Made by a program: the position numbers and the translations under genes. DNA of 64,000 bases from an uncultured delta proteobacterium (GTDB lineage Bacteria; Myxococcota; Myxococcia; Myxococcales; Anaeromyxobacteraceae): assembly GCA_963828255.1 (NCBI GenBank), contig CAWHDZ010000027.1:128001-192000 (forward strand), in the 5' to 3' direction. The notes under the pieces are model-generated. The model saw nothing but the letters and a program-made list of their open reading frames with translations. It ran no database searches and was not told the origin of the DNA. Shown in pieces: positions 35,440 through 53,338 of the stretch (its first letter is position 1; each line of letters opens with the position of its first letter).

Positions 35440-37332
35440 TCATTCCCCGATCACGCCGCAGCGGAGCCGCCCTCGGCGGACATCGGATTCCTGGCGTCCG
35501 CCGCCTCCGGGCAGCTGCCCGTAGCGCCGCCAGGTCGCGCAGGCCTCCCGCTGCATCCCGAGAAGTTCCTGCGCCTGCGCCACGTTGTAGAGCGGCGTCG
35601 GGTCGTCGGGGCTGGCGACCGAGGCCTGCCGGAAGGCCGAGAGGGCTCCCGGGAGGTCGCCCCGGCGCGCCAGGATCTGGCCGAGCGTCGTGTAGCCATT
35701 CGGCTGGTCGGCGTCGAGCTGGATGGATCGCCGGGCCCGGCGCTCGGCCTCGTCCAGCAGTCCCTGGGCCTCGAAGCAGATGGCGAGGTTGTTCTGCACG
35801 CCCGCGTCCCGCGGCAGGAGCTTCTCGGCCTCCACCAGCACGGCGGTCGCGCGGCCCAGCTGTCCTAGGTCGATGAGGTTCGCTCCCATGTTGCGGAGCA
35901 CCTCGGCGCGATCCTCGGGCCGGCTGGCCAGGGCGAGGGCGCGCTCCCGGAGTTGCAGGGCTCGCTGGAAGTCGCCGCGGCTGGCGACCACCTGGGCCTG
36001 GTTCTGGTAGGCCCTCCAGTTCCCGGGCGCCTTCGCCGCCGCGTCGGCCCAGACGGTTCCGGGGTCGGCCCACACGGCATTGCGCCGGTGGAGCGCGACG
36101 CCCAGGACCGCGCAGACGAGGAGCGTCAGCAAGAGGCCCGCCATCGCCGCCCGGGCCGGAGGGTGGACCCTTCGCTCCAGCGCCACCGATGCCAGCGCGA
36201 CGGCGGCCAGCACCAGGCCCCAGGACGCGAGGTAGACCCGGTGCTCGAACATGAGGTCCACCAGGGGGACGATGCTGGAGGTCGGTGAGACGACGATGAA
36301 GAACCAGGCGACCCCGAACGCCGCCAGCCGCGACGCCCGCGCCAACCCCGGGTTCCGGCCCGGCCGGCTCGCCCACCAGGCCAGTGCTCCGACCCCGGCG
36401 CAGAGTCCCAGGAGCAAGGCGCCCGACGCCAGGACCCCGGGCTCCAGGAGGGAGTGGCTGGGCGCCACGTCGTGGTCGAGGTTGAGCCCTGCGGGCCACG
36501 CCAGAAGTCGCAGGTACCGCACCAGCACTCCCGGCTGGCTGAGAGCGTAGTCCCAGGGCGTGAGCCCAGGGATGTCGAAGCCGGCGTCGCCGCTGCCCTC
36601 CACCGAACGAACCGTCCGGAGGCCGATGCGCGCGGCCAGGAGCGCGAAGGGCGCGGCCATCCCGAGGCGGACGACCCAGGCCCGGCCGCGCGGCCCCCCG
36701 GGAAGGTGGACCAGCACCAGCGCGGCCACGATCGTCGCGGGGAGCGTCACCACGATCGGCTTGGAGTCGAAACCGGCCAGGGCCGCTCCGAGCGCCCCGA
36801 GGTAGGCGGCCACGCCCGCCCCGGTCCGCCCACGCTCCGCGGCGACCAGCACGAGCAGCAGCGCCAGCAGGTAGAACAGCGAAGCCATCACCTCGGACCG
36901 CTGGACGACGTAGTTCACCGCCTGGCTGTTGAGCGGGTGGAGCGCCCAGATCGCCGCGGCAGCCAGCGCCGGGCCCCGGGGCTCGGGCCAGCCGACGCCC
37001 GCGAGCAGCCTGCGCCCGAGGAAGTAGGTCCCCAGGACCGCGAGGAGGTGGAACGCCAGGCTGGTCAGGTGGAAGGCGCGCGGATCGAGCCCGGACCACG
37101 CGTAGTTCGCCGCGAAGGTCAGGTCGGGGAGGACCCGGGTACCGGTGCCGAGCCTCTCGCCCAGCTCCTTCCCCGCGAATCCGGCCAGGTCCTTGACCGC
37201 CCGGTTCTGCGAGATCTGCGCGACGTCGTCGAAGAGGAGCCCGCCGTCGAGCGAGCTCGAGTACGCGATCCCCGTGACGATCAGGAGGGCGGCGAGCAGC
37301 GCCGCCGCTCTCGCTCCGGTCGTGGTCACCAT
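35440..37332 (-). CDS. TMTC-like GT-C glycosyltransferase with C-terminal TPR repeats
   Basis: LFDD acidic loop after TM1, ALHPLNSQAVNYVVQRSE, P-x-GLNLDHD, FEHRVYL, RNAVWAD, TPRs. Confidence 0.8.
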   Translation of the reverse strand: MVTTTGARAAALLAALLIVTGIAYSSSLDGGLLFDDVAQISQNRAVKDLAGFAGKELGERLGTGTRVLPDLTFAANYAWSGLDPRAFHLTSLAFHLLAVLGTYFLGRRLLAGVGWPEPRGPALAAAAIWALHPLNSQAVNYVVQRSEVMASLFYLLALLLVLVAAERGRTGAGVAAYLGALGAALAGFDSKPIVVTLPATIVAALVLVHLPGGPRGRAWVVRLGMAAPFALLAARIGLRTVRSVEGSGDAGFDIPGLTPWDYALSQPGVLVRYLRLLAWPAGLNLDHDVAPSHSLLEPGVLASGALLLGLCAGVGALAWWASRPGRNPGLARASRLAAFGVAWFFIVVSPTSSIVPLVDLMFEHRVYLASWGLVLAAVALASVALERRVHPPARAAMAGLLLTLLVCAVLGVALHRRNAVWADPGTVWADAAAKAPGNWRAYQNQAQVVASRGDFQRALQLRERALALASRPEDRAEVLRNMGANLIDLGQLGRATAVLVEAEKLLPRDAGVQNNLAICFEAQGLLDEAERRARRSIQLDADQPNGYTTLGQILARRGDLPGALSAFRQASVASPDDPTPLYNVAQAQELLGMQREACATWRRYGQLPGGGGRQESDVRRGRLRCGVIGE

Positions 37333-37338
37333 CCCCGG

Positions 37339-39108
37339 TCAGGGCTTGGGGGGCGCGGGAGCGGCCGGCGGCGGTCCTGCTGCGCCACCGTGACCGGCCG
37401 GGGGCGAACCACCGTGCCCGCCCATTCCACCTCCGGCACCTCCGTGCCCCCCCGGTGCGTCGCCGGACCCCTCCATCACCGGCGCTGGCTTCACGACGGG
37501 AAGGGGGTTGTCCCGCAGGTACTTCCGGATGGCCGCGTCGCTCACCTCGATGTCGGCGTGGCTCCGCAATTCCCCGAGGAACCGCCTGAACCGTTCCATG
37601 CGGCGCTTCGTGAGCAGCTCGTCCTTGATCTCCTTCTCGGCCTCGGGGCGCTCGATCGGCTTCGCAGGCCGGATGTCGAGGACCTTGATCACGTGGATGC
37701 CGTCAGGAGCGGTGAGGGGGTCCAGCACCTCGCCCGTCCGGGCAGTGAACACCGGCCCGAAGCTCTCGGGGACGTCCTTCCTCTCCGTCCAGCCGACCAT
37801 CCCGCCCTGCCTTCGCTGCGACTCGTTCTTCGAGGTGTCCGACGCAACCGCCTCGAAGCTCTCCCCGGCTGCCAGCCTTCGCTGCACTTCGGCGAGGGCC
37901 TCGGGATCGCCCACGATGGTCTGGGCCAGGAGGCGCGACTCCGGGACGACGAACTCGGCCTTTCGCGCCTCGTACTGCTCGTCGATCTCCTCGTCGGAGA
38001 CCGTCACCTCCTGGGTGACATACCGCTCGAGGTACAGATCGACGAGCATGTTCTCTTCCTGCGACAGGAGGGCTTCCACGATCGAAGGGTCCTCCCCGAG
38101 GCCGCGAGCCGTGGCCTCCGCCAGGAGAAGCCGCTCGGCGATGACGTCGCCCACCCCGACCTGGATCTCCGCGTCCTGGCGAACGGCGGGGACGGCCCGC
38201 AGGCGGTCCAGCTTCACCCGCGACGCCAGGTCGGATAGCGTGAAGCTACCTCCCGTCCAGGTGGCGCAGATAGTCTCGTCCTTGCTCGACCGGGCCTTCT
38301 CCAGGGAGGCGAGCGACAGGTCGCACGGAAGCATCTCGACCGCGTACTTGGCGCGCAGCCGCGCGATGAACTCCCTGTCCAGGGCCTCGACCTTGCGCCG
38401 CTCGATGACCCCCCGAAGACGCATGGAAACCTTGGCGAGCGGCGGCCGCTCGACCGGCTTGCGTTCCTCCAGCTTCAGGACGGTCCATCCCACGTTCGTC
38501 TCGAAGACGGGGCTGATGTCACCGGCCTGGAGGGCGAAGCCGGCCTCCTCGCGCACCTGCTGGAGATCCCCCCACCGGAGCACGAACAGCCCGCCGTTCA
38601 GCCGGCTGGGCGCGATCGACCGTTCCCTTGCAAGCGTCTCGACGTCCTCACCGACGAGCGCCCGGGTCCGCACCTCCTCCGCCTCGGCCCGGGTGACGGT
38701 CACCACCTCCCGGGCCAGGCCCGCCTCCCCGATCTTCTCGTAGGCCGCCTGCATCTCCTGTTCGGTCGCCTTGGACGGCTCATCGATCTCGCGCTTCACC
38801 AGGAGCTCGATCATCTTCCGCTCGCGCAGCTCCCTGAGTTCCTCGCGCAGGGCCGGATCGTCCTGGATCCCCGCTTGACGGGCCTCCTGGAGGAAGAGCT
38901 TCCGGTCGATGATGGCGTCCAGCACCATCCGTACCTCGGTCTCGGCGGCGAGGTACTTCTCGAACGAGCGGTGGCGCCGCCCGAACTCACGCTTGAGGTC
39001 CTGACCGGTGATCTCCTCCTCGTTGACCCTGGCCAGGTATCGAGGAGCGGCGCAGCCGGCGGAGGCGGTGGCGGAGATGAGGACGGCGGCGAGCAGCGAG
39101 TGTTTCAT
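37339..39108 (-). CDS. Parvulin-type peptidyl-prolyl isomerase/SurA-PrsA-like chaperone, lipoprotein, two PpiC domains
   Basis: Lipobox SAGC, LARVNEEEIT, LARERSIAPSRLNGG, GESFEAVASDTS...GGMVGW, GIHVIKV. Confidence 0.85.
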   Translation of the reverse strand: MKHSLLAAVLISATASAGCAAPRYLARVNEEEITGQDLKREFGRRHRSFEKYLAAETEVRMVLDAIIDRKLFLQEARQAGIQDDPALREELRELRERKMIELLVKREIDEPSKATEQEMQAAYEKIGEAGLAREVVTVTRAEAEEVRTRALVGEDVETLARERSIAPSRLNGGLFVLRWGDLQQVREEAGFALQAGDISPVFETNVGWTVLKLEERKPVERPPLAKVSMRLRGVIERRKVEALDREFIARLRAKYAVEMLPCDLSLASLEKARSSKDETICATWTGGSFTLSDLASRVKLDRLRAVPAVRQDAEIQVGVGDVIAERLLLAEATARGLGEDPSIVEALLSQEENMLVDLYLERYVTQEVTVSDEEIDEQYEARKAEFVVPESRLLAQTIVGDPEALAEVQRRLAAGESFEAVASDTSKNESQRRQGGMVGWTERKDVPESFGPVFTARTGEVLDPLTAPDGIHVIKVLDIRPAKPIERPEAEKEIKDELLTKRRMERFRRFLGELRSHADIEVSDAAIRKYLRDNPLPVVKPAPVMEGSGDAPGGHGGAGGGMGGHGGSPPAGHGGAAGPPPAAPAPPKP

Positions 39109-39137: not shown

Positions 39138-40190
39138 TCAGTTTGCGCAAAGTTCCTTGACCAGATCCTGCACGACCCGCTCGCCCACCTCGAACTGGCC
39201 GGTTAGTGCGCCCAGCAGGAGCAATCCCTCGTACTGCTGGCCGCGGCGGAGTCGCCGCGCCGACCAGACGAGGCGACCGGTCGTGGCCTTGGTCAGGCTC
39301 GCGTGAACCTCGACCCTGGGTGTCTTGCCTGCCACCTGATCGGGGATCTCCTCGTAGGACAATATGTCACCCTGCAGGAAGAGACAGCCCCCGACCCGCG
39401 CCTCGAGACGGCTCATCTGGTCCCGGGAAAGCAGACGCGGACTCCAGATCCCCTCGTCGAGGAAGGCGCGCCGCAACTCGGCCGGCTCCACCACCTCGAA
39501 CTCGGGCCGCTCGCCCAGGGCCCGGGCGAAGAGGACTTCCACAGCCCGGGCCGCGTCGGGCGCAGGACTGTGGTTGGTGAACGGGAGGAGACAGACGCGC
39601 TGTGGCCGGCGCTCGAGGTCGGGCGCTCCGGCGGCCTTCGGCAATACGCACCGGCCGCCCGGCTGGACCCGGATCGGCCGGGGCCTCTCTGGGTCCGGGA
39701 AGCCGGAGAGGATCTCGAGAGCGGCCTTCCGGGCCAGTTCCCCTGGTGCGGCCGGTACGGGAGGTCCTTGCGTCGACCGACGCTCCGGACCCTTGGCCGC
39801 GGTCGCGGTCCAGCCCAGGCTGCCATCCGCCTCGACCAGCCGGACTGCGAGCCCCGCTCCCGGTTCCCGCTCGTCGCCCGCGGCGAGGAAGGATCCCATG
39901 ACCAGTCCCTCGACACCCAGTTCCTTGGCGAGGTCACCGACCTGCGCGACCGTCATGGAGTCCAGGTAGCGGACCCGGTGCTCTTCCAGGAACGGCTCGA
40001 TCCGGTCTCCGGTGACGACCTCGTAGCCCTTTCGGGCTAGTTCGAGCTCCATCGCCGTCATCACGGCGGAGCGGGCGTCCGGGCCCACCTTCCCGTTGAA
40101 CGGAAGGAGGCCCAGGCGTCGGACGCCGCCCGCGACGTCGTCCGGGAGAGCCACGAGAATCGCCAGAGTCACCGCTGCCCAGATGCTCAC
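39138..40190 (-). CDS. Exported protein with two CsgG/PelC/GNA1162-like domains
   Basis: LGLLPFNG...RLVEADGSLGW and VCLLPFTN...G.ILSYE...TTGRLVWS duplicated domain. Confidence 0.6.
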   Translation of the reverse strand: MSIWAAVTLAILVALPDDVAGGVRRLGLLPFNGKVGPDARSAVMTAMELELARKGYEVVTGDRIEPFLEEHRVRYLDSMTVAQVGDLAKELGVEGLVMGSFLAAGDEREPGAGLAVRLVEADGSLGWTATAAKGPERRSTQGPPVPAAPGELARKAALEILSGFPDPERPRPIRVQPGGRCVLPKAAGAPDLERRPQRVCLLPFTNHSPAPDAARAVEVLFARALGERPEFEVVEPAELRRAFLDEGIWSPRLLSRDQMSRLEARVGGCLFLQGDILSYEEIPDQVAGKTPRVEVHASLTKATTGRLVWSARRLRRGQQYEGLLLLGALTGQFEVGERVVQDLVKELCAN

Positions 40191-40193: not shown

Positions 40194-40757
40194 TCACCGG
40201 ACGAGGAGTTCCAGCTCCTCGCGAATGAGGGCCTGCGCGACCTCGGCGGCGGTGCGCGACCCCATCCCGAAGAGCCGGCCGCTGACGGTCGAGCCGCTTC
40301 CGGACCGGGACGTGGACCAGACCGTCTTGCCCGACTCCACGTCCAGGAGCCGCAGGTGGAGCGTGACCTGCGCGCCCTGCGAACCGCGCCCCTCCTCGTA
40401 CTCGACGAGCGTCCCCACGAAGATTCCCTGCACCTTCAGTTCCTTGCCGATCTTCTGGATGTCCTCCGGGGTGAGCGAGCTTGGTTCCACTCGCTGGGTC
40501 CTCATGGCGCGGAGCACCTGGCCCGGCTCGACCGGATCGAACACCCCCAGGGCGAGGAGTTCGGTCAGGAAGATTCGCTGGACGCGCTCGCCACCGAGCT
40601 TGTCCCCTGCCACGTCGTCGAAGGGCAGGACCGCAACCTCGCGGATGGTCGAGAGGTCGGCGCTGGCGTGGACGAACTGCCTCGAGCTCGAGCAGGCGGA
40701 GACCGAGAGCATGAGCGCGCCCAGGAGCAGTGCACGGAGGGAAGGGAAGTGGTTCAT
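40194..40757 (-). CDS. Lipoprotein, CsgG/PelC/GNA1162 (DUF799)-like
   Basis: Lipobox VSAC; VAVLPF, GTLVEY, LRLLDVESGKTVWS. Confidence 0.72.
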   Translation of the reverse strand: MNHFPSLRALLLGALMLSVSACSSSRQFVHASADLSTIREVAVLPFDDVAGDKLGGERVQRIFLTELLALGVFDPVEPGQVLRAMRTQRVEPSSLTPEDIQKIGKELKVQGIFVGTLVEYEEGRGSQGAQVTLHLRLLDVESGKTVWSTSRSGSGSTVSGRLFGMGSRTAAEVAQALIREELELLVR

Positions 40758-40788: not shown

Positions 40789-42963
40789 TCACAGGTAGAA
40801 GGAGAGGGTAACAAGGTACGTCTCCAGCGCGATGCTCTGCGGACCGGTGCCCCACTGGCGGAAGAGCGTCGCCCCGAGCGCGGCGTGGCGGCTGATGACC
40901 CACCTCGGGATCACGCTCAGCCGGCTCTGCATCGAACTCCCGAGGGGCTGCACGTCCTGCTGGAAGTTCACCGAGAGGGTGAACGCTCCGCTCAGGAAGG
41001 GGTTCCAGTACAGCCGGTAGTTCTGGACCAGTCCGCTGATCGTCTGGCTCACCGTGTAGCCGAGCTGGGCGCTGACGTCGAGCTGGGGGCTGGGCCGCCA
41101 CCAGATCCTCGCGAAGTAGTTGCTCTGGAGGAAGGTCGGCGCGATGGGCACTCCCTCGGGGACCAGGTTCTGCCCGGAGATCGTCCGCTGGGCGTTGGCG
41201 CCGAGCCAGAGCTCGAGATCACGGAGGAGCTTGGCGATGGCGTTTCCTCCCGTACTCAGCACCGTCTGCTCCAGCCCGGTCCCGAGGCTGATCGACTTCG
41301 ACAGGGACCCGAAGACGCCGAAGCTCAGGACCTCCGGGAGGGGGCGCACACCCGCGGAGACCGTCGCCGACCCGGTCCGGAGCTGGAGGTCCCCGTAGTC
41401 CTGGAGGAGGAGCGATCCGCTCAGGCTGGCCGAGAAGACCAGGCTCGGGTTGTAGGAGAGTCCCAGGGACGCGGTGTCGACCCTGAGCTCCGGGCTGCCT
41501 GTCTGGCTCATGTTCTGACGGGAAAAGGACCCGTTCAGGGTCACGTCGGCCCAGGGGCCCGCGGAGATGCTGGCCACGCCGAAGCCGAGGAGGGATGTCC
41601 GTTCGGGCTCGCTGGAACGCTGGGTCTGCGTGGCGCCAACGCTTCCGGAGAAGCTCAGCGAGAGCTTCGGGGCGATCTGCGCCGTGGCGTTCACCCCTCC
41701 CATCTGATTGGAGTTGGTCGACAGGCGCGTCTGGTCGGGCAAGAAGGTCCGGTGCTCGTAGATCGTCAGCTCGGTCACCAGGGTGGGAAGGACGTTCACG
41801 CCGAAGTTGACCACCTTGAAGTAGCGGTAGCTGCTCGGCTGGAAGGAGATGGACCAGGCGCCGATCCCGGCGTCGTAGAAGAAGGAGGTGATCGGGACCA
41901 GGATCCAGCTCACCCCGTCGGTGCTGACGAAGACCGACCAGCTGATCGGTCCGCCCCACGCGATGAGATTCCCGAGGGCGTCCCGGACGAAGACGCGCAT
42001 CTCGTCCAGCGTCTCGATGCGCCCCATGTCGAGCGCCAGGTTCTGGTTGGAGAGACCGTCGGGCCCGAGCGAGATGCCGGTGCTGGCGGTGAAGTTGCGG
42101 TCGATCAGCGCCGGGATCGGGGTCGAGGGCGTGGTGCTCGTGTCGTTGGGAGTGGAGGTGACGACGTAGTACGCGGACTGCGCCATGATCTCGCGCGGCT
42201 CGATCACCGGCGTGGACGACCGGAGCGTCTCCTCGATGCGGTTGTGGGCCGCGGCGCCGTACACCCCGAAGGAAAGCGCCGAGCCGAACGCGGTCCCGAT
42301 GTAGTCGACCCGACCGTAGGGCGTGAGCGTGAGCCGCTCGTATCCGGTGGTCGCGTTCTCGTAGTACTCCATCCCGGGACCTGCCGTGAGGCTGAGCCCT
42401 CCCAGCTTGTAGAGGGCGGTGAGGGTGGCCCGGTACTGGTTGGTCTCGAGCTCCGGCTGGGGCGGCGGCTGGCCCACCCGCTGGCCCACCCACTCCGCCC
42501 AGGCCGAGAGGTCGAGCCCGGTGACGGGCGTGAGGGTGAGCGCGAGCGCGGCCCGGTGGGACATCGAGTCGCTCGAACCCCCGTCCCGGACCCACCGATC
42601 CAGCCACTGGAACTCGTACAGGCCCTCCGCGACGAAGCCGGGCTGCGTGTAGACGAGCCGGAATCCGGGCTGTGCGGACCTCTGGCCGCTGCGCAAACCC
42701 TGGGTGAACACGTTCAGGGTGTCGTCCAGGTACAGGAACTTGAGCAGGTACTGGATCGGGCTCGTGACCGTGTGGCCGTAGGAGAGAAAGTAGCGCTGGC
42801 CGAGGATGTCCGAGGAAAGCGCCGGGTTCTCGACCCGGTTGTAGGAGAGCTCGGCCAGTCCGCGCCAGTCCCCCTCGCCCCGCGCCTGGGCGGGTCCCGC
42901 CACCAGCGCCAACAGGGCCAGGAACCAGAGGGCGCGCTTGCAGGTGGTTCTCTGGTCGCGCAC
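40789..42963 (-). CDS. Large outer-membrane beta-barrel with an inserted F5/8 (discoidin)-like domain
   Basis: Signal peptide, many amphipathic strands, C-terminal YLVTLSFYL; central LALDMG...SVFVSTDGVSW...YRYFKV...TELTIY. Confidence 0.7.
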   Translation of the reverse strand: MRDQRTTCKRALWFLALLALVAGPAQARGEGDWRGLAELSYNRVENPALSSDILGQRYFLSYGHTVTSPIQYLLKFLYLDDTLNVFTQGLRSGQRSAQPGFRLVYTQPGFVAEGLYEFQWLDRWVRDGGSSDSMSHRAALALTLTPVTGLDLSAWAEWVGQRVGQPPPQPELETNQYRATLTALYKLGGLSLTAGPGMEYYENATTGYERLTLTPYGRVDYIGTAFGSALSFGVYGAAAHNRIEETLRSSTPVIEPREIMAQSAYYVVTSTPNDTSTTPSTPIPALIDRNFTASTGISLGPDGLSNQNLALDMGRIETLDEMRVFVRDALGNLIAWGGPISWSVFVSTDGVSWILVPITSFFYDAGIGAWSISFQPSSYRYFKVVNFGVNVLPTLVTELTIYEHRTFLPDQTRLSTNSNQMGGVNATAQIAPKLSLSFSGSVGATQTQRSSEPERTSLLGFGVASISAGPWADVTLNGSFSRQNMSQTGSPELRVDTASLGLSYNPSLVFSASLSGSLLLQDYGDLQLRTGSATVSAGVRPLPEVLSFGVFGSLSKSISLGTGLEQTVLSTGGNAIAKLLRDLELWLGANAQRTISGQNLVPEGVPIAPTFLQSNYFARIWWRPSPQLDVSAQLGYTVSQTISGLVQNYRLYWNPFLSGAFTLSVNFQQDVQPLGSSMQSRLSVIPRWVISRHAALGATLFRQWGTGPQSIALETYLVTLSFYL

Positions 42964-42973: not shown

Positions 42974-44356
42974 CTAGCGGGGGTAGACGAGGCGGTATTC
43001 TGAGACGGGCGGGGTCCGGGTATGGCAGCTCACCGTGCAGCTTCCTCCGCCCACGTCGCGCCGGTAGGAGACGAGCCCGGGTGTCCGGAGCACGAGCAGC
43101 GCGGGCTGGGTGGAGCTTCCATGTGGATCATGGCACGCGTGGCACGAGACCCCGCGGGCGGAGTGCAGGGCGTGCCCGGCGTAGCGGGTCCCCCGCGCGG
43201 ACGGTCCCGCACCGACGCTCCCGTATGCACCCCAGGCGTGGCAGTCGAAGCAGAGGTCCGTTTCCTCCACCCGGCCGGGAGCGGCCGACGCCAGGTAGCG
43301 CTTTCGGAGCATGGAGGGAAGGCTCGAGCCGTGCGGACCCCGGGTCTGGCCCCCGACGGAGCCGTGGCAATCGCTGCACGTGACCAGTCGATCGGCGCGC
43401 CAACCCGGTGCGAAGGCGGCCAGGTCGATGCCGGTGTCGCGGCCCGGGGCCTCGACCGGGTGGTACGACGGGTTGGCGGGGTTGAAGGCGGACGCGACCT
43501 GGCTCCGCGCGACCGCGCCCGACGCCACCGACACCGCCGTGCCTGCAGGCCCGTCGGGCGTCCCCGCGTGGCAGCGGAAGCACACCTCGTACTCCCGGGT
43601 CGGGGTGCGGTCCTCCGGGCCAACCGCTGCGAGCCGGGGAATGGAGCCCGGTGCGCCGTTGACCGGGCGCACACGGCGGACGCCGTCGAGCAGTCCGGAG
43701 ACGCCACTCATCGAAAGGCTGGGCTCGCGCCGCGCCAGGTGTGGATTGTGGCAATCGGTGCACCCGGGTCCGGGCATGGCCCCCACCACCTCGACGCCCC
43801 CCGGCCTGGGATGGCGGCTCACCTTGGTGACCTCGGTCGCGATGTCCTGTCCGCCCCCGGCCGCGCGGTGGCAGGCGAGACAGAGGTCGTCGCCGCGGAG
43901 GAGGAGCATCCCGGGGATGGGGCCCTTCGCGTCCTTCGTCCCGTGCGGGTCGTGGCAGTTCACGCAGCGTCCGGCGTCGGCCCGGCGCCGGGCCTTGGGC
44001 TTCGGACCCGGCCAGACCACCTGTGACGACTCGCCGTGGGTCGACCGGCTCAGGCGCGAGCGCTCGGGAAAGAGCCCCAGCGGCGTCTTGTGGCAGGACA
44101 GGCAGAGTCCGTCGTCGTTCGCGGCGAAGAGCGCCATCGCGTTGGACGGACCGCGCCCGGCCGTGCTCTCCAGGGTTCCGTGGCACTGGAGGCAGGTCCC
44201 GGGACGGTACTTCTGGTCGCGGAAGGCGCCGGAGGTCGGGTTGCCGTGCTTCGAGGTCCTGAACGCATCGAGTTCCGGGTGGGCCGGCCCCGGCACGGCC
44301 GCGAGGAGGGCAGCGGTCAGCGGGAAGAGGAGCCGTCGGGCGAGGAGCGGGGTCAT
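42974..44356 (-). CDS. Multiheme cytochrome c (~10 hemes)
   Basis: Signal peptide; 9 CxxCH plus 1 CxxxCH by hand count. Confidence 0.9.
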   Translation of the reverse strand: MTPLLARRLLFPLTAALLAAVPGPAHPELDAFRTSKHGNPTSGAFRDQKYRPGTCLQCHGTLESTAGRGPSNAMALFAANDDGLCLSCHKTPLGLFPERSRLSRSTHGESSQVVWPGPKPKARRRADAGRCVNCHDPHGTKDAKGPIPGMLLLRGDDLCLACHRAAGGGQDIATEVTKVSRHPRPGGVEVVGAMPGPGCTDCHNPHLARREPSLSMSGVSGLLDGVRRVRPVNGAPGSIPRLAAVGPEDRTPTREYEVCFRCHAGTPDGPAGTAVSVASGAVARSQVASAFNPANPSYHPVEAPGRDTGIDLAAFAPGWRADRLVTCSDCHGSVGGQTRGPHGSSLPSMLRKRYLASAAPGRVEETDLCFDCHAWGAYGSVGAGPSARGTRYAGHALHSARGVSCHACHDPHGSSTQPALLVLRTPGLVSYRRDVGGGSCTVSCHTRTPPVSEYRLVYPR

Positions 44357-45282: not shown

Positions 45283-45311
45283 ATCTCCTCCAATACCTCA
45301 AAAATGAAGAA

Positions 45312-45342
45312 GCGTGGGGAGGGATTCTTCCCCTCCCCACGC
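45312..45342 (-). terminator. Intrinsic terminator after the OmcS-like gene
   Basis: 12-bp stem gcgtggggaggg/ccctccccacgc followed on the minus strand by ttcttcattttt. Confidence 0.8.
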
Positions 45343-45365
45343 CGCTCACTCAACTCGCCAGATTC

Positions 45366-46541
45366 CTACTGGAAGCGGGCGCCCGTGCCGGTCAGGTTGC
45401 TGTTGGTGCGGCCCTGGCCGTGGCAGGTGTTGCAGAGGTTCCGGATGGTGGTGCCGTTGCCCTCTTCCTTGTTCGCGTCGGCATTGTGGATCAGCGTCGG
45501 GAGCTGGCCTTCGTTCTGGGAGACGTAGTTCCCCGGGAGGAACAGGCCGAACGAGTTCTTGTTGCCGTGCCCCTTGTGGCAGGTCATGCAGCCGACGGTC
45601 ATCTCCGTGTCAACACCGGGGTTGACGTTGCCGGCCTCGGTGCCCCACTGCCAGGCGGCGCCGGCGATGTAGGTCACCTTGATGCTGACGTTGGTGGGGA
45701 CGCTGGTGATCGCGCCGGTGGTCGCGTTCACGGTGCCCTCACCGGTGAAGAGCTGGCGCCGCGTGAAGGACACCTGGTCGGTCGGGTGGCGCTTGAAGAA
45801 CGTCGCCGAGGAACCCACGTCGTCGTGGAAGTTGCCGTGGCACATGCCGCAGAAGGCGGTCATCTTGTTCGTGCCAGAAGCGGCGCCGACGGCCGCCGTG
45901 TAGACGATGTTGTTGGCGTTGTACCCGTCGCCGCCGGTGAAGATGTTGACGTCGAAGCCGAAGTTCGGCGTGGTGCCCGCGTTGATGACGTAGCTCGGCT
46001 CGCGGACGACCGCATCGGCGCCGCGGTCGCGGAGGTTGCGGTAGGTGCTCCGGCCGTGGACGCTGTGGCACCGGTTGCACTCCATGTCCGCCGGGTAGGA
46101 CGGGTAGACGGTCGGGTTCAGGCCGGGGGGAAGAGCGGTCGACCCGAGGGAGTGGCCCATGTAGGACCCGTAGCCGCCCTCGTTCGGGACGGCCGTGTAG
46201 GTGTCGGCGCTGTTGAGGGCGCCGCCAGCGCGGGCGAGACCGTTCGTGGAGCCCTGGTTCGTGCCGAAGACGTCGGGAGCGCCGCGGCCACCGTCGTGGC
46301 ACACCATGCAGGTCCGGTTCACGTCGGCGGCGAGGAGCAGGAACTCGTGGCCGCCCGTGTCTCCGGAGCCAAAGACGAAGGCGTCGGCCGAGTTCTGGGT
46401 GTTCTGGCCGAAGCTGTGCTGGCGGCTGGCGTGCATCGTGTGGCAGTCGCTGCAGACCAGCGTCGTGTACACGTGGTACTCGCCGGCGAGCGCCGTGGTG
46501 GCGAAGGCGGTCATCGCGAGGAACAGGATCTTCTTCATCAT
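45366..46541 (-). CDS. omcS: Hexaheme cytochrome c, OmcS-like nanowire subunit candidate
   Basis: Sec signal; YH...CSDCHTMH, CMVCH, MGHSL, CNRCHSVH..YRNL, MTAFCGMCHGNFH...RHP, CMTCHKGH, RNLCNTCH parallel Geobacter OmcS motifs recalled from memory. Confidence 0.8.
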   Translation of the reverse strand: MMKKILFLAMTAFATTALAGEYHVYTTLVCSDCHTMHASRQHSFGQNTQNSADAFVFGSGDTGGHEFLLLAADVNRTCMVCHDGGRGAPDVFGTNQGSTNGLARAGGALNSADTYTAVPNEGGYGSYMGHSLGSTALPPGLNPTVYPSYPADMECNRCHSVHGRSTYRNLRDRGADAVVREPSYVINAGTTPNFGFDVNIFTGGDGYNANNIVYTAAVGAASGTNKMTAFCGMCHGNFHDDVGSSATFFKRHPTDQVSFTRRQLFTGEGTVNATTGAITSVPTNVSIKVTYIAGAAWQWGTEAGNVNPGVDTEMTVGCMTCHKGHGNKNSFGLFLPGNYVSQNEGQLPTLIHNADANKEEGNGTTIRNLCNTCHGQGRTNSNLTGTGARFQ

Positions 46542-46628: not shown

Positions 46629-46645
46629 AGCACGGGGAATGCCAA
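46629..46645 (-). promoter_or_regulatory. Sigma54 (-24/-12) promoter of the OmcS-like gene
   Basis: Minus strand TTGGCATTCCCCGTGCT: GG-N10-GC, ~90 nt upstream of the ATG. Confidence 0.7.
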
Positions 46646-46766: not shown

Positions 46767-47735
46767 CTAGTCGAGCTTCCCCGCCGGCCTGGCGGGTTCA
46801 CGCGGCTTCAGGATCTGGACCCGGTTGTTGCCGCGGTCGGCGACGCAGAGCCGACCCTGACCGTCGAACGACACGTCCGCCGGGTAGAGCACTTCCCCGG
46901 GGCCATTTCCGGCGCCGCCGAACTGCCCGATGAGCTTCCCATCGGGCTTGTAGAGCTTGATCTCGTGGCGCAACGAGTCTGCGAGCGCGATCCGGCCCTT
47001 GACGTCCACCGCCACGCCATGGGGGAAGGACACGTTCTCCCTTCCCGCCTCGTGACGGCCCCACGCACGCACGTATCGCCCGCGACGGTCGAACACCTGG
47101 ATGCCGAGCCCCACGCTGTCGGAGACGTAGATGGCGTCACGGGTCGGAGCGATGCCCATGATGGAGGAGAACTCGCCCTTTCCCGCGCCCTTGTTCCCGA
47201 AACGAAACTTGAGCCGGCCCCTGGCGTCGAAGACCAGCACCTCTCCGTTGCCCGAGTCGCCGAGGTAGAGGTTGTCGTCGTCGTCGAGGGCGAAGGCAGT
47301 GAAGAACGTACCCGGCTGGGTCTCCATGCCCTCCAGCGGCAGGAAGTCGATGAAGTCCCCCCGGTAGCTGTAGCGCCGGATCTGCAGCCGGTCGTTGGAG
47401 TCGAGGACGAGGATGCGCCCCTTGGAGTCGGGCACGGCCTTGATGGGAGCACCGATGCGGCCCGGGTCTCCGAACGAGAAGATCGGCGCCCCGCGCGCGT
47501 CGAAGATGCCGATCAGCCCGCGCCCGGTATCCGCGACGTACATCTCGCCGCTCCGTGCGTCGCACGTCACCCCCGACACGCCCTGGAAGCGCCCCTCGTA
47601 GAAGTGGCCGTAGGTGACCACGACCGGCTCGAGCTCCTCGACGGCGAGCGCGCTGGGGTCGTCGGCGGCCCGGACTGGGCCCGCCGATGCGCCGGCCAGC
47701 GCGAAGGCGCAGGCGAGGAGCGGGGCGAGCCGCAT
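46767..47735 (-). CDS. NHL-repeat beta-propeller protein, exported
   Basis: Signal; repeats MYVADTG, LYLGDSGN, FPHGVAVD, YPADVSFD...VADRGNNRVQI. Confidence 0.88.
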   Translation of the reverse strand: MRLAPLLACAFALAGASAGPVRAADDPSALAVEELEPVVVTYGHFYEGRFQGVSGVTCDARSGEMYVADTGRGLIGIFDARGAPIFSFGDPGRIGAPIKAVPDSKGRILVLDSNDRLQIRRYSYRGDFIDFLPLEGMETQPGTFFTAFALDDDDNLYLGDSGNGEVLVFDARGRLKFRFGNKGAGKGEFSSIMGIAPTRDAIYVSDSVGLGIQVFDRRGRYVRAWGRHEAGRENVSFPHGVAVDVKGRIALADSLRHEIKLYKPDGKLIGQFGGAGNGPGEVLYPADVSFDGQGRLCVADRGNNRVQILKPREPARPAGKLD

Positions 47736-50700
47736 CTAGGTGCCCTTGCGCTCGGGCTTGCGGAGCTCCCTCGGGTTCTCGCCGCCCTCGTGGCAGCGGA
47801 TGCAGAGTCCGCGGGCCGGGTTGCCGAGGAGGGTCTTCTCGTGGCCGGTGCCGTGCGCCCCGTGGCAGGAGAGGCAGGTCATGTTTCCCCCGGTGTTGGG
47901 GTCGGTGACGCCCTTGCCGATGGGGTGGCTGAACTGGGTGTGGGTCTTGTGGCATCCCAGGCACAGGTCGTCCTTCGGCTGTGTGAGAAGGGCCGGCTGC
48001 GCCGAGGAGTGGGGCTGATGGCAGGCCGTGCAGCGGCCGCCCGAGGCCTTGAGCGGGTGGATGGACTTGGACCTGGCGAGCGTGTCCTTCACGGCGTCGT
48101 GACACCCGAGGCAGACGGCGCGCTCGTTGTTGCCTTTCACCAGCCCCTTCTCGTCGGAGGCGTGCGGGGTGTGGCAGTCGGTGCAGTCGCCCTGTGCCGC
48201 GGCGTGGACCCCCGTCTTCGCCGAGACCTCGGTCTTCTTGTCGCCGTGGCAGCGGAAGCAGAGCGAAGGGCTCTTCGCCAGGAGGGCCTGCGGCTTCGCG
48301 CCGGTTCCGGCGTGGCAGCGCGCGCACGCGCCGAAGACCTTGTGCGTGTTGGAGCGGATGAGATGGGGCTGGTCGGAGCCGTGCGGGTTGTGGCAGGAGG
48401 CGCAATCGACCCCGGCCAGCGGGAACCGCTGGTGGGCCGTCTGCATCGCCGGCTTCCGCGTGTCGTGGCACTTCAGGCAGAGCTTCTCCCGCGGCGCGAC
48501 CAGCATGGCCTGGTTCGCCGAGCCGTGCGGGTCGTGACAGTCGGTGCAGGACCCCCTCTGCACGACGGCGTGAACGTGCTTCGATCCGATCTGCTTCTTC
48601 TGCTTCTCGTGGCAGCCCAGGCACAGGTCGTTGCCGGCGCGAACCAGGTTGCCCTTCGTGTCGGAGGCGTGCGGATCGTGGCACTTCAGGCAGTCGCCCG
48701 CCTTCACCGGGGCGTGCGTCTCCTTGCTCGCGAAGGCCTTCGGGTCGTGGCACCCGAAGCAGAGGGCCCCGCCCGTCCGGACGAGCAGCTTGTCGGCCGT
48801 GGAGGCGTGCGGGGCGTGACAGCCCCCGCAGCGCTCCTGCTTGACGGCGGTGTGGACGTGCTTCTTCGCGAAGGTCTGGCGGGTGTCGCCGTGGCAGGTC
48901 TCGCACAGCGCCCGCCCCTTCGTCATGGTCTTCGGCTGGTTGGCGCCAGGCTTGGGCGCCACGTGGCAGGAGGTGCAGTCCCGGTTGATGAAGGGGGCGT
49001 GGCCCACGCGGCGGACGAGGTCCTTCTTGTCGCCGAAGTGCGGGTCGTGGCAGCCGAGGCAGGCGCTGCCCTCGATGGCGAACCCGGAGTGGCTCTTGAC
49101 GATGGCCGCGTCCTTGGCGTCGTGGCAGTCGAGGCACAGCTCGCGCCCGGCCTTGAGGAGCAGCGAGGGCTCCTTGGAAGCGTGGCCCGCGTGGCAGGCA
49201 TCGCACGATCCCTGCTTCGCCGGCATGTGGCTCGGGGCGGTGGCGCGGGCCAGCCTCTTCGTCAATGCGCCGTGGCAGTCGCCGCAGAGCTCGATCCGGT
49301 CCTTCTTCAGGAACGCACTGTCCTTGGAGCCGTGCGGCTCGTGGCAGGCGGTGCACTCGCGGTTGCGGACCGGGGCGTGGCTGGAGCGGACTCCCTTGGC
49401 ATCGAGCGCCGTCGGGACGCCGGCGTGGCACCCGATGCAGAGCGCACCCACCGGGCCGTCGAGGAGCTTCGGCGCGGTGGAGGCGTGCGCGGCGTGGCAG
49501 GTGGCGCAATCGCCGCTCGCCACGGGCGCGTGGAGCTTGGCCTTCTCGTACTTCTTCTTGAAGCCGTGGCACTTCTCGCAGAGCTGGCCCGCCGGAACGG
49601 TGAGGAGCTTGGCCTGGGCGGAGCCGTGCGGCTGGTGACACTCCGCGCAGCGTCCCTCGCGGACCGGGCGGTGCACGTTCTCCCCGCTGAAGGCCTTCTT
49701 CTCCCTCTCGTGGCAACCGTAGCAGAGCGTGGCCGCGTCCTTGACCAGCAGGCGTGGCTCGGCCGAGCCGTGCGGGTCGTGGCACCCCGCGCAGTCGCCC
49801 GAGCTGGCCGGCGCGTGGACGGTCTTGGCCTTCAGCCAGTCGGTAACGGCCGGGTGACACTGGACGCAGAGCGCCGGCGCGGCGGCCTTGAGGAGCTTCT
49901 TGTTGTCGGAGCCGTGCGGCGCGTGGCAGGAGGCGCAGTGCCCCTCACCGGCCGGCTTGTGGGCCTTCTTCGCCAGCTTCGCCTCGACGTCCGCATGGCA
50001 GGCGGCACAGGTCTCCCGTTCGGTCTGGACGAGGAGCTTGGCCCCCTTGCCCGAATGGGGCGAATGGCAGTCCGTGCATCCCTCGGCCGGAGGGTGGACG
50101 ACCTTCCTCTTGAGGTCGGCGGCCTGGTCTCCGTGGCAGTCGAGGCAGAGCCCGGGAACCGCCTTGGCGACGGCGAAGGGCTTGCCCTGCACCGAGCCGG
50201 CAGGGGCATGGCAACCCGAGCAGTCGGCGCCCACGGGGTGGACGCTCGCGAGGAGCCCCTTGGCGTCGGCGGACGAGTGCGGCGAGTGGCACTTGACGCA
50301 CCTTTGGCCTTCGACCGGGTAGCCGCCGTGGGCCGCCTTCAGCTTGGCGCCTCCGGCGTCGTGGCACTTTCCGCAGAGCGCCTTCTCGTCGCTCACCAGC
50401 AGGCTCTTGTGCGGGCTGGAGTGGGAGGCATGGCATTCGCTGCAGTCCTTGGCAGCCGGCGCGTGGACCTTGACTCCCTGGGTCTGCGCGTTCTTGTGAC
50501 AGGTGGCGCACGCCTTGTTGGTGGCCACCCGCATCAGGGCGGGGAAGTCGGACGAGTGGGCAGCGTGGCAGACGGTGCACTTGCCCTTGCCCGACCCCTG
50601 GATCGCCTTGTGGACGACCCCCTCGGCGAAGGACCGCTTCTCCTTCTCGTGGCAGGAGAAGCACAGGTCCGGCTCCTCCTTCTGCAGGACGTTCACGCCG

Positions 50701-50996
50701 ACGATGCCGTGGCGGCGGTGGCAGACCTCGCACTGGTCCGAGTCGCGGAAGGGCTTGTGGACGACCTTGCGGCTCTCCTGCTTGAGCACCTTCTCGTGGC
50801 AGGCGATGCAGGGCTTGGCCGGGGCGGTCTTCCTCGCGGCCTTGGGAGCGGGGCGAACGTCTGCCCCGTATGCATTGCCCGCCACGACCAGCGCGAGGGC
50901 GGCGAGCGCCCCCAGGTAGGGCAGCGTGGTCCTGCGGCTGCCACGTGCGGCGCCCCCGTGGCCAGGATGAAGGTTCGCGCGAGAGAAGTCGTTCAT
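47736..50996 (-). CDS. Giant periplasmic multiheme cytochrome c (42 CxxCH; paired-CxxCH repeats)
   Basis: 42 CxxCH by hand count in H..CxxCHxxH..L..CxxCH repeats; signal-like segment; Lys-rich. Confidence 0.92.
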   Translation of the reverse strand: MNDFSRANLHPGHGGAARGSRRTTLPYLGALAALALVVAGNAYGADVRPAPKAARKTAPAKPCIACHEKVLKQESRKVVHKPFRDSDQCEVCHRRHGIVGVNVLQKEEPDLCFSCHEKEKRSFAEGVVHKAIQGSGKGKCTVCHAAHSSDFPALMRVATNKACATCHKNAQTQGVKVHAPAAKDCSECHASHSSPHKSLLVSDEKALCGKCHDAGGAKLKAAHGGYPVEGQRCVKCHSPHSSADAKGLLASVHPVGADCSGCHAPAGSVQGKPFAVAKAVPGLCLDCHGDQAADLKRKVVHPPAEGCTDCHSPHSGKGAKLLVQTERETCAACHADVEAKLAKKAHKPAGEGHCASCHAPHGSDNKKLLKAAAPALCVQCHPAVTDWLKAKTVHAPASSGDCAGCHDPHGSAEPRLLVKDAATLCYGCHEREKKAFSGENVHRPVREGRCAECHQPHGSAQAKLLTVPAGQLCEKCHGFKKKYEKAKLHAPVASGDCATCHAAHASTAPKLLDGPVGALCIGCHAGVPTALDAKGVRSSHAPVRNRECTACHEPHGSKDSAFLKKDRIELCGDCHGALTKRLARATAPSHMPAKQGSCDACHAGHASKEPSLLLKAGRELCLDCHDAKDAAIVKSHSGFAIEGSACLGCHDPHFGDKKDLVRRVGHAPFINRDCTSCHVAPKPGANQPKTMTKGRALCETCHGDTRQTFAKKHVHTAVKQERCGGCHAPHASTADKLLVRTGGALCFGCHDPKAFASKETHAPVKAGDCLKCHDPHASDTKGNLVRAGNDLCLGCHEKQKKQIGSKHVHAVVQRGSCTDCHDPHGSANQAMLVAPREKLCLKCHDTRKPAMQTAHQRFPLAGVDCASCHNPHGSDQPHLIRSNTHKVFGACARCHAGTGAKPQALLAKSPSLCFRCHGDKKTEVSAKTGVHAAAQGDCTDCHTPHASDEKGLVKGNNERAVCLGCHDAVKDTLARSKSIHPLKASGGRCTACHQPHSSAQPALLTQPKDDLCLGCHKTHTQFSHPIGKGVTDPNTGGNMTCLSCHGAHGTGHEKTLLGNPARGLCIRCHEGGENPRELRKPERKGT

Positions 50997-51046: not shown

Positions 51047-52645
51047 TCACTTCGCGGCCCGGGACAGCGCCGCGAGCGCGGCTTCGTCGACCTGCACCTT
51101 GGCCCCGGCCCGCAGCGCGTCGGCCTTGTGGCGGAGCGCCCCGGCGCCGCGCTCGGCCTTGAGTTCCATGGAGAGACGGTGGCGAACCTGATCGAGCGTG
51201 GCGCCCTTCTCGGCCACGTGGGCCTCGCATCGGATGACCCGGTAGCCGGCCTGGGTCTTGATCGGTGCGCTCAGCTCGCCGGGCGGAACGCTCGCCACGA
51301 CCGCGGCCAGCGCCGGGTCGCCGTCGGGCTGCCTGACCCGCTCCAGCTCCGCGTCGGTCACGAACCCGATGAGGCCGCCCTGCCTGGCGGTTCGCTGGTC
51401 CGTGCTCTCGCGCGCGACTTGGGCGAAGTCCTCCCCGGACGCGACGCGAGCCGCCAGCTTGCGCGCGCCCTCCTCGGTGGCAGCCACGAGCTGGAAGCAC
51501 CGCCGGCCGCCTGGCGTCATGAATTCGCCCTTGCGGGCCTGGTACCTTCCCTCCACTTCCGCGCTGGAGGGCTCCGGAGCCTCCATGCGGAGCCGGTCGG
51601 CGTAGGCCGCCGCCACCGCCGCCCTCTCGGCCTTGGCCGCCGCACGCGCGACCGCCGGGTCCTTCGAGAAGCGCTTCCAGGCCGCCTCGTCCAGAAGCGC
51701 CTTGCCCAGCAGGTCGAGCGCGAGCGTCGTCTTGACCTCCGGAGAGGCGCGCGGAGGTCCCTGGCGGGCACCACCGTGGCCGCCGCCCAGTTCCCTGACC
51801 ACCTGGGCGTAGGTGACCTGGACCTTCCCGGCCTTGGCCACGACCTTCGCCCCGCGCTTCCCCGAGACATCGAGGGAGTCGCCGGTCGCCGCGATGGCCT
51901 TCTCGTCCACGCCCCCCTTCCGCTCCTTGACGAGCCCGGCGACGTGCGTCTCGGTCGCCGCCGAACGCGCGTTCAGCTCGAGGTCCCGCCGGAGCTGGTC
52001 GTTGACCACGGCGTAGGCCGCCTCGTCCGGAAGCCGACGGTCCTGGACCAGGAAGACGGCGAAGCCGCCGTCCACGGACACGGGCCCGAGCGGCCTTTTG
52101 AGCGGCGCCTGGAAGACCTCCTTCGTCAGCGCCGGAGCCAGCGCCGAGCGCATCATCCAGCCCAGGTCGCCACCCTTCGCCTTCGAGGCCGGGTCAGTCG
52201 AGGTCTTGGCCTCCTCCGCGAAGCTGCTCCCCTTGAGGATCCGGTCGAGCGTCGCCCGGGCCTCGGCCTCGGTCGCGCGCGCGACGAGCAGGAGCCGCAC
52301 CTGATCCCCGCGCTGGTGGAACCGCTCCCGGACTTCGGCCTCCGGGACCTGGATGCCCGGATAAACGACGACCTCCAGGTACCTCTGGACCGCGGCACGC
52401 CGGCGGGCAGCCTCGATGGCGGGCCGTGCCGCGGCGGGGGGCTTGATGCCCAGCTTCTTCGCCTCGCCGGCGAGCACGATCTCCGCGATGAGATCGTCGA
52501 GCGCCACCTGTGGCGTGGCACGACCGCTCACGGCGCGTGCCTTCACTTCGGTGGCGGTGATGACTTCGTCTCCGACCCGGGCGACGATGGGATCGACGGG
52601 CGCGGCGGCGAGCAGGACGGCACAGACACTCCAGAGCATGGGCAT
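51047..52645 (-). CDS. Parvulin-type PPIase/SurA-like chaperone, two PpiC domains
   Basis: IVARVGDEVIT, GSSFAEEAKTS.DPASKAKGGDLGW, GEDFAQVARES..GGLIGF, PIKTQAGYRVI. Confidence 0.88.
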   Translation of the reverse strand: MPMLWSVCAVLLAAAPVDPIVARVGDEVITATEVKARAVSGRATPQVALDDLIAEIVLAGEAKKLGIKPPAAARPAIEAARRRAAVQRYLEVVVYPGIQVPEAEVRERFHQRGDQVRLLLVARATEAEARATLDRILKGSSFAEEAKTSTDPASKAKGGDLGWMMRSALAPALTKEVFQAPLKRPLGPVSVDGGFAVFLVQDRRLPDEAAYAVVNDQLRRDLELNARSAATETHVAGLVKERKGGVDEKAIAATGDSLDVSGKRGAKVVAKAGKVQVTYAQVVRELGGGHGGARQGPPRASPEVKTTLALDLLGKALLDEAAWKRFSKDPAVARAAAKAERAAVAAAYADRLRMEAPEPSSAEVEGRYQARKGEFMTPGGRRCFQLVAATEEGARKLAARVASGEDFAQVARESTDQRTARQGGLIGFVTDAELERVRQPDGDPALAAVVASVPPGELSAPIKTQAGYRVIRCEAHVAEKGATLDQVRHRLSMELKAERGAGALRHKADALRAGAKVQVDEAALAALSRAAK

Positions 52646-52670: not shown

Positions 52671-52713
52671 TGCATGCAGCATACCGCCTTGCCTGCCGCA
52701 CAACCGATTGATC
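52671..52713 (-). promoter_or_regulatory. Putative sigma54 promoter with upstream IHF-like site for the PPIase/cytochrome operon
   Basis: Minus strand CGGTATGCTGCATGCA (GG-N10-GC) at 52671-52686; GATCAATCGGTTG (WATCAAN4TTR-like) at 52701-52713. Confidence 0.45.
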
Positions 52714-52879
52714 TCCCGAGAGTTACAAGCGTTCGAAGGGGATCGCATGCACCTCTTGCGCGATCGGTTGCGATGGACGCAAAGTTCGTCCCCCCGTCGC
52801 GGACGACCGTGCCGGAGCGGTCCCGTGCCAGGACGGGACCCACGCCGGAGGAACGAGCTCCGGGTGATCGGTCCTCAGC

Positions 52880-53338
52880 TCAGCGCCGAGCGACCGGCCT
52901 GTCCTCGTCGCCCACCGCGTGACAAGTCTTGCACAGCGAGGTGGCGTCCGTTGCGGCGCCAGGAATGACCAGGTGCATGTGGTTGCCGGAGCCCGCATCG
53001 TGGCAAGTCAGGCACGTCACCTTCCCCCCGGCGAGCTTCAGACCGCTCCTCGTCACGCTGGCGACATCCTTGAGAGGCGACCTGGCGTCGCCCGGGAGGG
53101 ATCTCGCTGAGACCCGCCTCGCCCTCGCATCGCCGTAGTCCACGTCCACCGGGTGCGTGCGGTGCGAGCCGGCTTCGTGGCAGGCGATGCAGTCCCGGTC
53201 GGTGACCCGTGCGCCCTCGCCGCCCTCGAGGCCACAATGCCTCCGTGTCGCTTGCCTGTCCGACGGGTTCACTTCCGGATCGACGACGGGAGCGGCGACC
53301 AGCACGGCGGCGATCATGGAGGCGGAAAGCGAGAGCAT
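52880..53338 (-). CDS. Small triheme cytochrome c
   Basis: Signal; CIACH, THPV, CLTCH, CKTCH. Confidence 0.85.
   Translation of the reverse strand: MLSLSASMIAAVLVAAPVVDPEVNPSDRQATRRHCGLEGGEGARVTDRDCIACHEAGSHRTHPVDVDYGDARARRVSARSLPGDARSPLKDVASVTRSGLKLAGGKVTCLTCHDAGSGNHMHLVIPGAATDATSLCKTCHAVGDEDRPVARR

Follow-up and report, generated by a model that had tools for sequence, protein, structure and literature searches.

The DNA analysed here, a stretch of 64,000 nucleotides (the window; contig CAWHDZ010000027.1, positions 128,001 to 192,000), comes from an uncultured member of the Anaeromyxobacteraceae and carries a twelve-gene cytochrome locus at positions 35440..53338 of its minus strand. Our analysis identifies this locus as a rearranged variant of the osc (omcS-companion) cluster that lacks OscD. 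We hold it to be probable, with some reservation, that the locus builds a filament from hex1, a divergent hexahaem cytochrome of the OmcS family, and that this filament is wired to the periplasm through a 42-haem cytochrome. The osc cluster of Geobacter sulfurreducens was reportedly defined by Shen et al. in 2025 (Cell Chem Biol 32:239) as GSU2504-GSU2493. As described in published papers, the osc operon encodes proteins for folding (OscH), secretion (OscE, F and G) and morphology (OscD), with GSU2501, GSU2495 and GSU2494 labelled oscC, oscI and oscJ (PMC13194489), and an eight-gene block, GSU2500-2493, includes the 26-haem GSU2495 (PMC12977616). OmcS homologues of Anaeromyxobacter dehalogenans have already been listed (PMC10954620), and a hexahaem protein of G060, a genome of the same family as the window's, has the same sequence as a protein of A. 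dehalogenans. The initial annotation of the window had described a machine for a divergent nanowire; its novelty is not supported, as what we find is the published osc cluster in a variant form. The literature searched, which did not extend to the paper defining the osc cluster and its supplements, contained no description of a 42-haem (fused OscI-OscJ) or OscD-less form.

All twelve co-oriented open reading frames (ORFs) proposed for the locus are present on the minus strand, in the order given. The genome, 4.3 Mb in size with 99% completeness and 6.6% contamination, falls in the Anaeromyxobacteraceae, as its Anaeromyxobacter-like appearance had suggested. GC content at third codon positions is 0.83-0.94 in the ORFs that were measured whole. 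The cytochromes carry, in gene order, 3, 42, 6, 6 and 9 CxxCH motifs, the last with one additional CxxxCH. Pfam and NCBIfam assign Rotamase/SurA_N domains to both peptidyl-prolyl isomerases (PPIases), NHL, CsgG (E 6e-5), a GNA1162-like match and TPRs; the 724-residue barrel candidate had no match in the same scan. The genes had been described as lying mostly a few bases apart or overlapping, which holds for eight of the eleven junctions (50 bp or less) but not for the other three (234, 225 and 83 bp); from the trihaem gene to the TMTC-like gene, the gaps are 234, about 50, 0, 225, 83, -4, 10, 31, 3, 29 and 6 bp. Two of the three long gaps border hex1 and contain a sigma-54-like site and a strong hairpin. 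The features of the locus are as follows.

52880..53338, minus strand: small exported trihaem cytochrome, accessory (3 CxxCH, Paired_CXXCH_1), 234 bp upstream of the rest
51047..52645, minus strand: second OscH-like PPIase/chaperone with two parvulin domains (Rotamase x2)
47736..50996, minus strand: 42-haem periplasmic cytochrome, OscI-type (haems 1-26) plus OscJ-type (haems 27-42), from best-match halves and motif spacing
46767..47735, minus strand: NHL beta-propeller at the OscK position, directly after the OscJ half (NHL E 2e-23)
46629..46645, minus strand: sigma-54 (-24/-12)-like site, some 100 bp ahead of hex1 (strict motif match)
45366..46541, minus strand: hex1, divergent OmcS-family hexahaem cytochrome, likely the major (polymer) subunit (family profile, predicted fold, conserved histidines)
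45311..45343, minus strand: 14-pair hairpin with a weak T tail, terminator- or attenuator-like, directly after hex1 (ranked first of 10 sites in 19 kb)
44353..45282, minus strand: hex2, shorter OmcS-family hexahaem cytochrome of a separate ancient subfamily, likely a minor subunit (phmmer match to 6EF8, own clade)
42974..44356, minus strand: ten-haem cytochrome (9 CxxCH plus CxxxCH) at the OscD position, predicted adaptor (conserved family)
40789..42963, minus strand: OscE-type outer-membrane protein, predicted beta-barrel with an inserted F5/8-type-C (CBM32-like) domain (E profile)
40194..40757, minus strand: OscF-type CsgG-like lipoprotein (CsgG above cut-off; lipobox visible in the sequence)
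39138..40190, minus strand: OscG-type tandem CsgG-like protein (GNA1162-like match; similarity to canonical G)
37339..39108, minus strand: OscH-type lipoprotein PPIase/chaperone (SurA_N and two Rotamase domains; same place after G)
35440..37332, minus strand: TMTC-like GT-C glycosyltransferase with TPRs, accessory (N-terminal part: Atlas PMT_2 0.98, TMTC_DUF1736 0.92; TPR matches)

Canonical clusters near a Geotalea homologue of OmcS (P0110; E 1.7e-140 to the OmcS structure 6EF8) stand in here for the G. sulfurreducens companions. This homologue retrieved 78 metagenome loci, 27 of which, longer than 7 kb, were mapped, and the letters D-H and K were assigned from gene order in these canonical loci. 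In loci with enough flank, and in genomes of the window's own family, the order is hexahaem, beta-propeller D, E, F, G, H, 26 haem, 16 haem and NHL; from D to NHL this is the order of GSU2500-2493, so that the stand-in matches the published block. The likeness to an omcS companion block drawn by the initial annotation is well founded, as the barrel, the CsgG-like proteins, the PPIase and the NHL protein are all homologous to omcS companions. The synteny and profile comparison that it proposed, run against the stand-in clusters, matched E, F, G and H in an E-F-G-H order that is kept. With 610 bits, the barrel falls over its full length within a profile shared with canonical E proteins, and the F, G and OscH-type proteins match their canonical counterparts at E 1e-24 (31% identity), E 6e-11 (26% identity) and E 6e-13, respectively. 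Members of the E family contain an inserted F5/8-type-C domain (F5_F8 matches in 9 of 24; CBM32 E 3e-7). Their barrel fold is predicted from alternating strands and from weak Atlas neighbours, the nearest named clusters being outer-membrane barrels at 0.75-0.76, which is a lead only.

The locus shares with the osc cluster the OmcS-family hexahaems, the E barrel, the CsgG-like F and G, the H PPIase, the 26+16-haem wire and the NHL protein. It differs in having I and J fused and placed with the NHL gene upstream of the hexahaem, in lacking OscD, in carrying hex2 and the ten-haem gene between hexahaem and barrel, and in its second PPIase. Because OscD is absent though most of the defining parts are present, the locus is an osc variant rather than a canonical member. 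Canonical Anaeromyxobacter osc clusters are found in the same host family and encode the same companion families, with 22-40% identity to the window's proteins, but they have canonical OmcS, OscD and split 26- and 16-haem genes. Two genomes, G383 and G405, hold both canonical and variant clusters (loci L225-L228), whereas the window's genome has the variant only and no canonical omcS was found in it. In two other canonical clusters, OscG-like genes are extended to 1001 and 1583 amino acids (L182:15637-18642 and L190:15887-20638).

The 42-haem cytochrome had been regarded as an extra part. Judged by its sequence, it is a collinear fusion of the 26-haem (OscI) and 16-haem (OscJ) genes of the osc block. 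Residues ~24-680 best match the 26-haem protein (369 vs 265 bits) and residues ~698-1071 the 16-haem protein (231 vs 197 bits), and the motif spacings are collinear with both genes, including the terminal 25-28 and 29/30-24 signatures. The fusion junction lies near 48977-48905, and the start of the gene, after correction, is placed at 50996. Sixteen haems is also the number that we take GSU2494 to have, and a 16-haem gene is present in the canonical loci. The gene that follows encodes an NHL protein that the NHL tree leaves between OscK and the pre-omcS NHL; it sits at the OscK position. NHL genes lie near hexahaems in 69 of 80 related loci; here and below, counts out of 80 refer to the best 80 of 295 stretches encoding hex1 relatives in a GTDB scan, and companions were counted within 10 kb of the hexahaem, on flanks that are often cut.

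The initial annotation had recognized hex1 as OmcS-like and had named the absence of the OmcS fold as evidence that would speak against a nanowire. A phmmer search of the PDB with the single hex1 sequence gave no OmcS match. In contrast, a family profile built from 81 relatives matched 6EF8 with E 8e-21, aligning residues 1-406 of 407, and the next-best structures were OmcE chains (E 9e-6 and 9e-4). With the AlphaFold2 model of hex1, computed without haems (predicted local distance difference test, pLDDT, 74), Foldseek found 6EF8 as the only match below E 0.001 (E 1.9e-6, TM 0.41, 17% identity), and the VIA fold search placed it on top (Z 13.8, root-mean-square deviation 4.5, 263 aligned; runner-up Z 5.2). 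The predicted fold matches that of OmcS. When 60 canonical and 80 divergent sequences are aligned, the six CxxCH motifs and six further histidine columns are conserved at 97-100%, and hex1 keeps all 12 haem histidines in OmcS register. One of the 12 histidine ligands of OmcS is donated by the neighbouring subunit to haem 5 (PMC6584659; PMC9473688). The histidine of the CxxCH-x-M-H motif, His37 in hex1, is present without exception in the divergent (80 of 80) and the canonical (60 of 60) set. We take the neighbour-donated ligand of OmcS to be His16 and hex1 His37 to stand at its position. Beside the shared motifs, distal histidines and predicted fold, hex1 differs from OmcS (6EF8/6NEF) by an identity of 17-20%, a separate clade and an extra histidine (His42, present in 96% of the divergent subfamily), and the core of its subfamily is ~90 residues shorter than the canonical one (median 328 vs 422).

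The surroundings of hex1 also carry expression signals. Downstream of hex1-class genes, a stem of at least 9 pairs is found in 59 of 104 cases and, downstream of canonical hexahaem genes, in 21 of 38, but it occurs after only 1 of 25 hex2 genes, 1 of 34 genes of the ten-haem class and 3 of 82 NHL genes. The strict motif, based on what we assume to be the -24/-12 consensus, has 23 matches in the 4.3-Mb genome, including the one ~100 bp before hex1, and a loose version precedes 11 of 106 related genes, compared with 2.6 expected. The genome encodes RpoN and 18 proteins with the GAFTGA activator motif, and the promoter and hairpin scan found no sigma-70-like site. A promoter-like site and a 3' hairpin would fit a hex1 made in excess, as a major subunit would be.

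From the profile match, the fold and the histidines, we consider it fairly probable that hex1 forms an OmcS-type filament. Several points weigh against this. The identity with OmcS is low and the TM is 0.41, the hex1 segment that contains His37 has a pLDDT of 47-65, and OmcT and OscC-type proteins retain the same histidines. The sigma-54-like site, present in just 11 of the 106 relatives, is not general, and the companions were compared through the Geotalea-homologue clusters rather than directly with the G. sulfurreducens proteins. OscD, reported to shape the wire, is missing. Moreover, of the four G. sulfurreducens paralogues OmcS alone is known as a wire former, and the authors caution that true wires outside the genus cannot be told from sequence (PMC12977616). 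A complex prediction with two hex1 copies and four haems scored 0.01, which counts neither for nor against polymerisation.

These points bear on another explanation, namely that the locus encodes a porin-cytochrome conduit without a long filament, in which the 42-haem and ten-haem proteins would make up a wire running through the barrel or against it, and hex1 and hex2 would be surface monomers or short oligomers. A large barrel gene adjoining multihaem genes is the usual layout of conduits, and the locus, like MtrCAB and OmbB-OmaB-OmcB, has a barrel gene next to genes for multihaem cytochromes of the periplasm and the surface. The missing OscD and the three Geobacter paralogues without a known filament (PMC12977616) agree with such a conduit, as do natural fusions between hexahaem and adaptor domains (see below), which show fixed complexes. 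However, the hairpin and promoter-like site mark hex1 for excess synthesis, the neighbour-lending histidine is invariant, and this same block reportedly secretes OmcS wires (PMC13194489). Unlike conduits, the locus also encodes CsgG-like rings, a PPIase and OmcS-fold subunits, which are osc features, and the Pfam and NCBIfam scans gave no MtrB-type family match for the barrel. We regard the conduit as unlikely, though it deserves serious consideration.

The locus had been called complete. OscD, however, was found neither by tblastn nor by profile anywhere in the genome, which is 99% complete. A full or shortened OscD accompanies all 15 loci of the split class (with a 25-26-haem gene) vs 1 of 32 genomes of the fused class (35 loci with one ORF of at least 30 haems, mostly exactly 42); in that single genome, G405, OscD lies in the separate canonical cluster, and G383 is similar in this respect. 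Two changes suffice between fused and split forms on the tree of the OscI part, so that the pattern reflects about two events and not 47 independent observations. This small number of changes, in genomes that are mostly incomplete, lessens the weight of the link between fusion and OscD loss.

Two cytochromes, hex2 and the ten-haem protein, lie between hex1 and the barrel gene. The second hexahaem does belong to the OmcS family, as had been proposed: phmmer matches hex2 directly to 6EF8 (E 5e-7), and hhalign pairs it with the hex1 family at 100%. A tree of 62 selected rows has three clades, canonical (100), hex1 (97) and hex2 (94); since hex2 forms its own clade, it is an old subfamily, and its interpretation as a recent OmcT-like duplicate was rejected. 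In the window's hex2, 11 haem histidines are aligned, and the HP histidine is replaced, with two histidines nearby. The ten-haem gene and hex2 share 4 bp, and the barrel gene follows 10 bp further. Its product belongs to a conserved family (18 rows) with a C-terminal Y[PA]R. Four loci from three genomes (L090, L108, L127, L137) encode an OmcS-type domain fused before a six-haem homologue of the ten-haem family (hhalign between the two families 99.9%, E 2e-33), and these fusions suggest end-to-end docking. In L079, L097, L098 and L106, hex2 is followed by 12-haem proteins composed of a six-haem adaptor-family domain and a further six-haem part. The AlphaFold2 model of the ten-haem protein (pLDDT 48) is so poor that its fold search (Z 3.4 or less) is uninformative, and the PDB profile search gave motif-level matches only. 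The idea that this protein is one distal histidine short and accepts a neighbour's was rejected, as ten candidate histidines are conserved.

It is conceivable that hex2 and the ten-haem protein act as an adaptor in an OscD-less system, although we are inclined to doubt it. The window's hex2 has lost the HP histidine. A docking-like histidine (CxxCH-x-x-H) occurs in 13 of the 18 ten-haem family members but neither in the window's copy, which has Leu62, nor in the four relatives closest to it. In addition, two loci (L087 and L107) carry both OscD and the ten-haem gene, so that any replacement of one by the other is not strict, and three Acidobacteriota loci (L083, L101, L135) lack hex2. The missing docking residue, the loci without hex2 and the co-occurrence with OscD would also suit a system in which hex1 polymerises and in which hex2 and the ten-haem protein are decorations of the tip or sides, or independent surface cytochromes, instead of a basal adaptor. 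The translational coupling of hex2, ten-haem and barrel genes, their joint move to one strand in genome G398, and the natural hexahaem-adaptor fusions all argue against decorations, which we find improbable.

If the locus works as an osc variant, as we favour, all its subunits would be exported by Sec and loaded with haem by genes elsewhere, and one or both OscH-type PPIases would fold hex1. The OscE barrel, with OscF and OscG rings, would carry hex1 over the outer membrane, as proposed for Geobacter. Overproduced from its own sigma-54-type promoter, with transcripts stopping at the hairpin, hex1 would stack head to tail, each His37 being lent to haem 5 of the neighbour. Made at a low level through read-through, hex2 and the ten-haem cytochrome could form the adaptor at one filament end that replaces OscD, the 42-haem protein could conduct electrons through the periplasm to the filament base, and the TMTC-like enzyme may glycosylate surface cytochromes. 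Such a machine is not self-contained, as had been supposed, since the haem-attachment genes lie on other contigs and the locus has no quinol oxidase or ATPase gene. A bolder and quite tentative proposal is that the locus represents a second class of OmcS-type nanowire with a structure of its own, a heteropolymer with a built-in cytochrome base in which the single 42-haem chain spans the periplasm, and the ten-haem adaptor and the minor OmcS-type subunit dock the filament on the OscE barrel without OscD. If true, a distinct nanowire class would span more than ten mostly uncultured phyla and provide a path of haems that runs without a break from the periplasm into the filament, and the heteropolymer would answer how cytochrome nanowires get anchored and charged.

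Relatives of hex1 are widespread. Among 401 genomes of the phylum, scored with five candidates per genome, 26 have a match at E 1e-15 or better, and the nine with E <1e-70 are all in the window's family. The best 80 loci are spread over Myxococcota, Acidobacteriota, Planctomycetota, Zixibacteria, Eisenbacteria, Armatimonadota, Gemmatimonadota, Ignavibacteriota, Krumholzibacteriota, Latescibacterota, Fibrobacterota, Bacteroidota and Glassbacteria. Of these loci, 75 have one or more companion genes and 69 have two or more companion classes, far above chance, in line with the co-conservation that the initial annotation had expected. By class, a cytochrome of at least 16 haems is found in 61 loci, F/G in 59, a PPIase in 22, hex2 in 21, the ten-haem family in 18, and the barrel in 23 with strong matches or 36 counting weak ones. 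The layout 42 haem, NHL, hex1, hex2, ten haem, E, F, G, H is repeated in G324, G327, G188 and G383, and partly in G249.

Other layouts occur as well. In G398 and G192, hex2 lies with the barrel side (with the barrel module itself in G398) and is transcribed opposite to hex1, which lies with the 42-haem/NHL side; in these two genomes and in G373 (G398:C6, G192:C97, G373:C328), a CxxxxCH-type cytochrome directly follows hex1. A third layout, in which no PPIase is in view, consists of NHL, hex1, a six-haem cytochrome, a shorter barrel-like gene of ~550 amino acids, two single-domain F/G genes and then the 42-haem gene (L075-L080, L086, L093, L096, L099, L110, L111, L115, L129, L140, L146). Three near-identical cluster copies with many frameshifts (L067, L068, L069) lie on different contigs of one genome, possibly because of a strain mixture or read errors. 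The I-J fusion, OscD loss, hexahaem-adaptor fusion and clusters in which no PPIase is in view indicate which osc parts are dispensable, and these natural variants hint at how filaments are anchored and supplied with electrons. As the phmmer null and the profile match illustrate, OmcS surveys by BLAST or single sequences miss the hex1 subfamily. Counts of nanowire-type electron export may thus be too low in Anaeromyxobacteraceae, Acidobacteriota, Planctomycetota, Zixibacteria, Eisenbacteria, Armatimonadota, Ignavibacteriota and others.

The second PPIase, the trihaem cytochrome and the glycosyltransferase are not supported as core parts, since they are patchy across loci. The second PPIase is collinear with canonical H proteins and forms its own clade; among the 80 loci it is seen only in L067-L069 and L072. 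Its origin as a recent tandem-duplication copy is unsupported, as it is a deep paralogue. A trihaem homologue occurs at the same place in one other cluster of this layout (G188). The TMTC-like gene has at least seven paralogues in the window's genome; such genes are found in 6 of the 80 loci and also beside several canonical clusters. OmcS and OmcE have been described as glycosylated (PMC9473688), so that a role of the TMTC-like protein at the cluster is plausible.

The cluster is flanked by a second TMTC-like gene (53472-55292, plus strand) and by two Thr-rich CxxxxCH/CxxCH cytochromes with 15 and 25 CxxCH (55319-60837, minus strand), which may be substrates of the glycosyltransferase. TMTC-like and CxxxxCH cytochrome neighbours also lie beside many canonical Anaeromyxobacteraceae clusters. 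One could therefore imagine that the block mainly exports and modifies these giant CxxxxCH cytochromes, with the hexahaems as passengers. Most of those of the 80 loci that come from other phyla, however, have no such neighbour in view, and the hexahaems are the constant partner, which makes this explanation very improbable.

Elsewhere in the window, a 450-residue multi-pass membrane protein without Pfam or NCBIfam match (34079-35431, plus strand) is convergent with the cluster end and, judged by eye only, resembles another lipid-linked glycosyltransferase. A cytochrome c7-like ORF with 3 CxxCH (31761-32309, minus strand) has ends that appear frameshifted or truncated. On other contigs of the genome, two equally long ORFs (C2:14280-16769 and C3:7645-10134), both with 12 haem motifs, may reflect a duplication or an assembly artefact. 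In total, the genome contains 48 ORFs with at least three haem motifs, amounting to 529 motifs, and an array of giant CxxxxCH cytochrome ORFs with up to 49 CxxCH each (C7:208485-244673) encloses a haem-attachment-motif gene.

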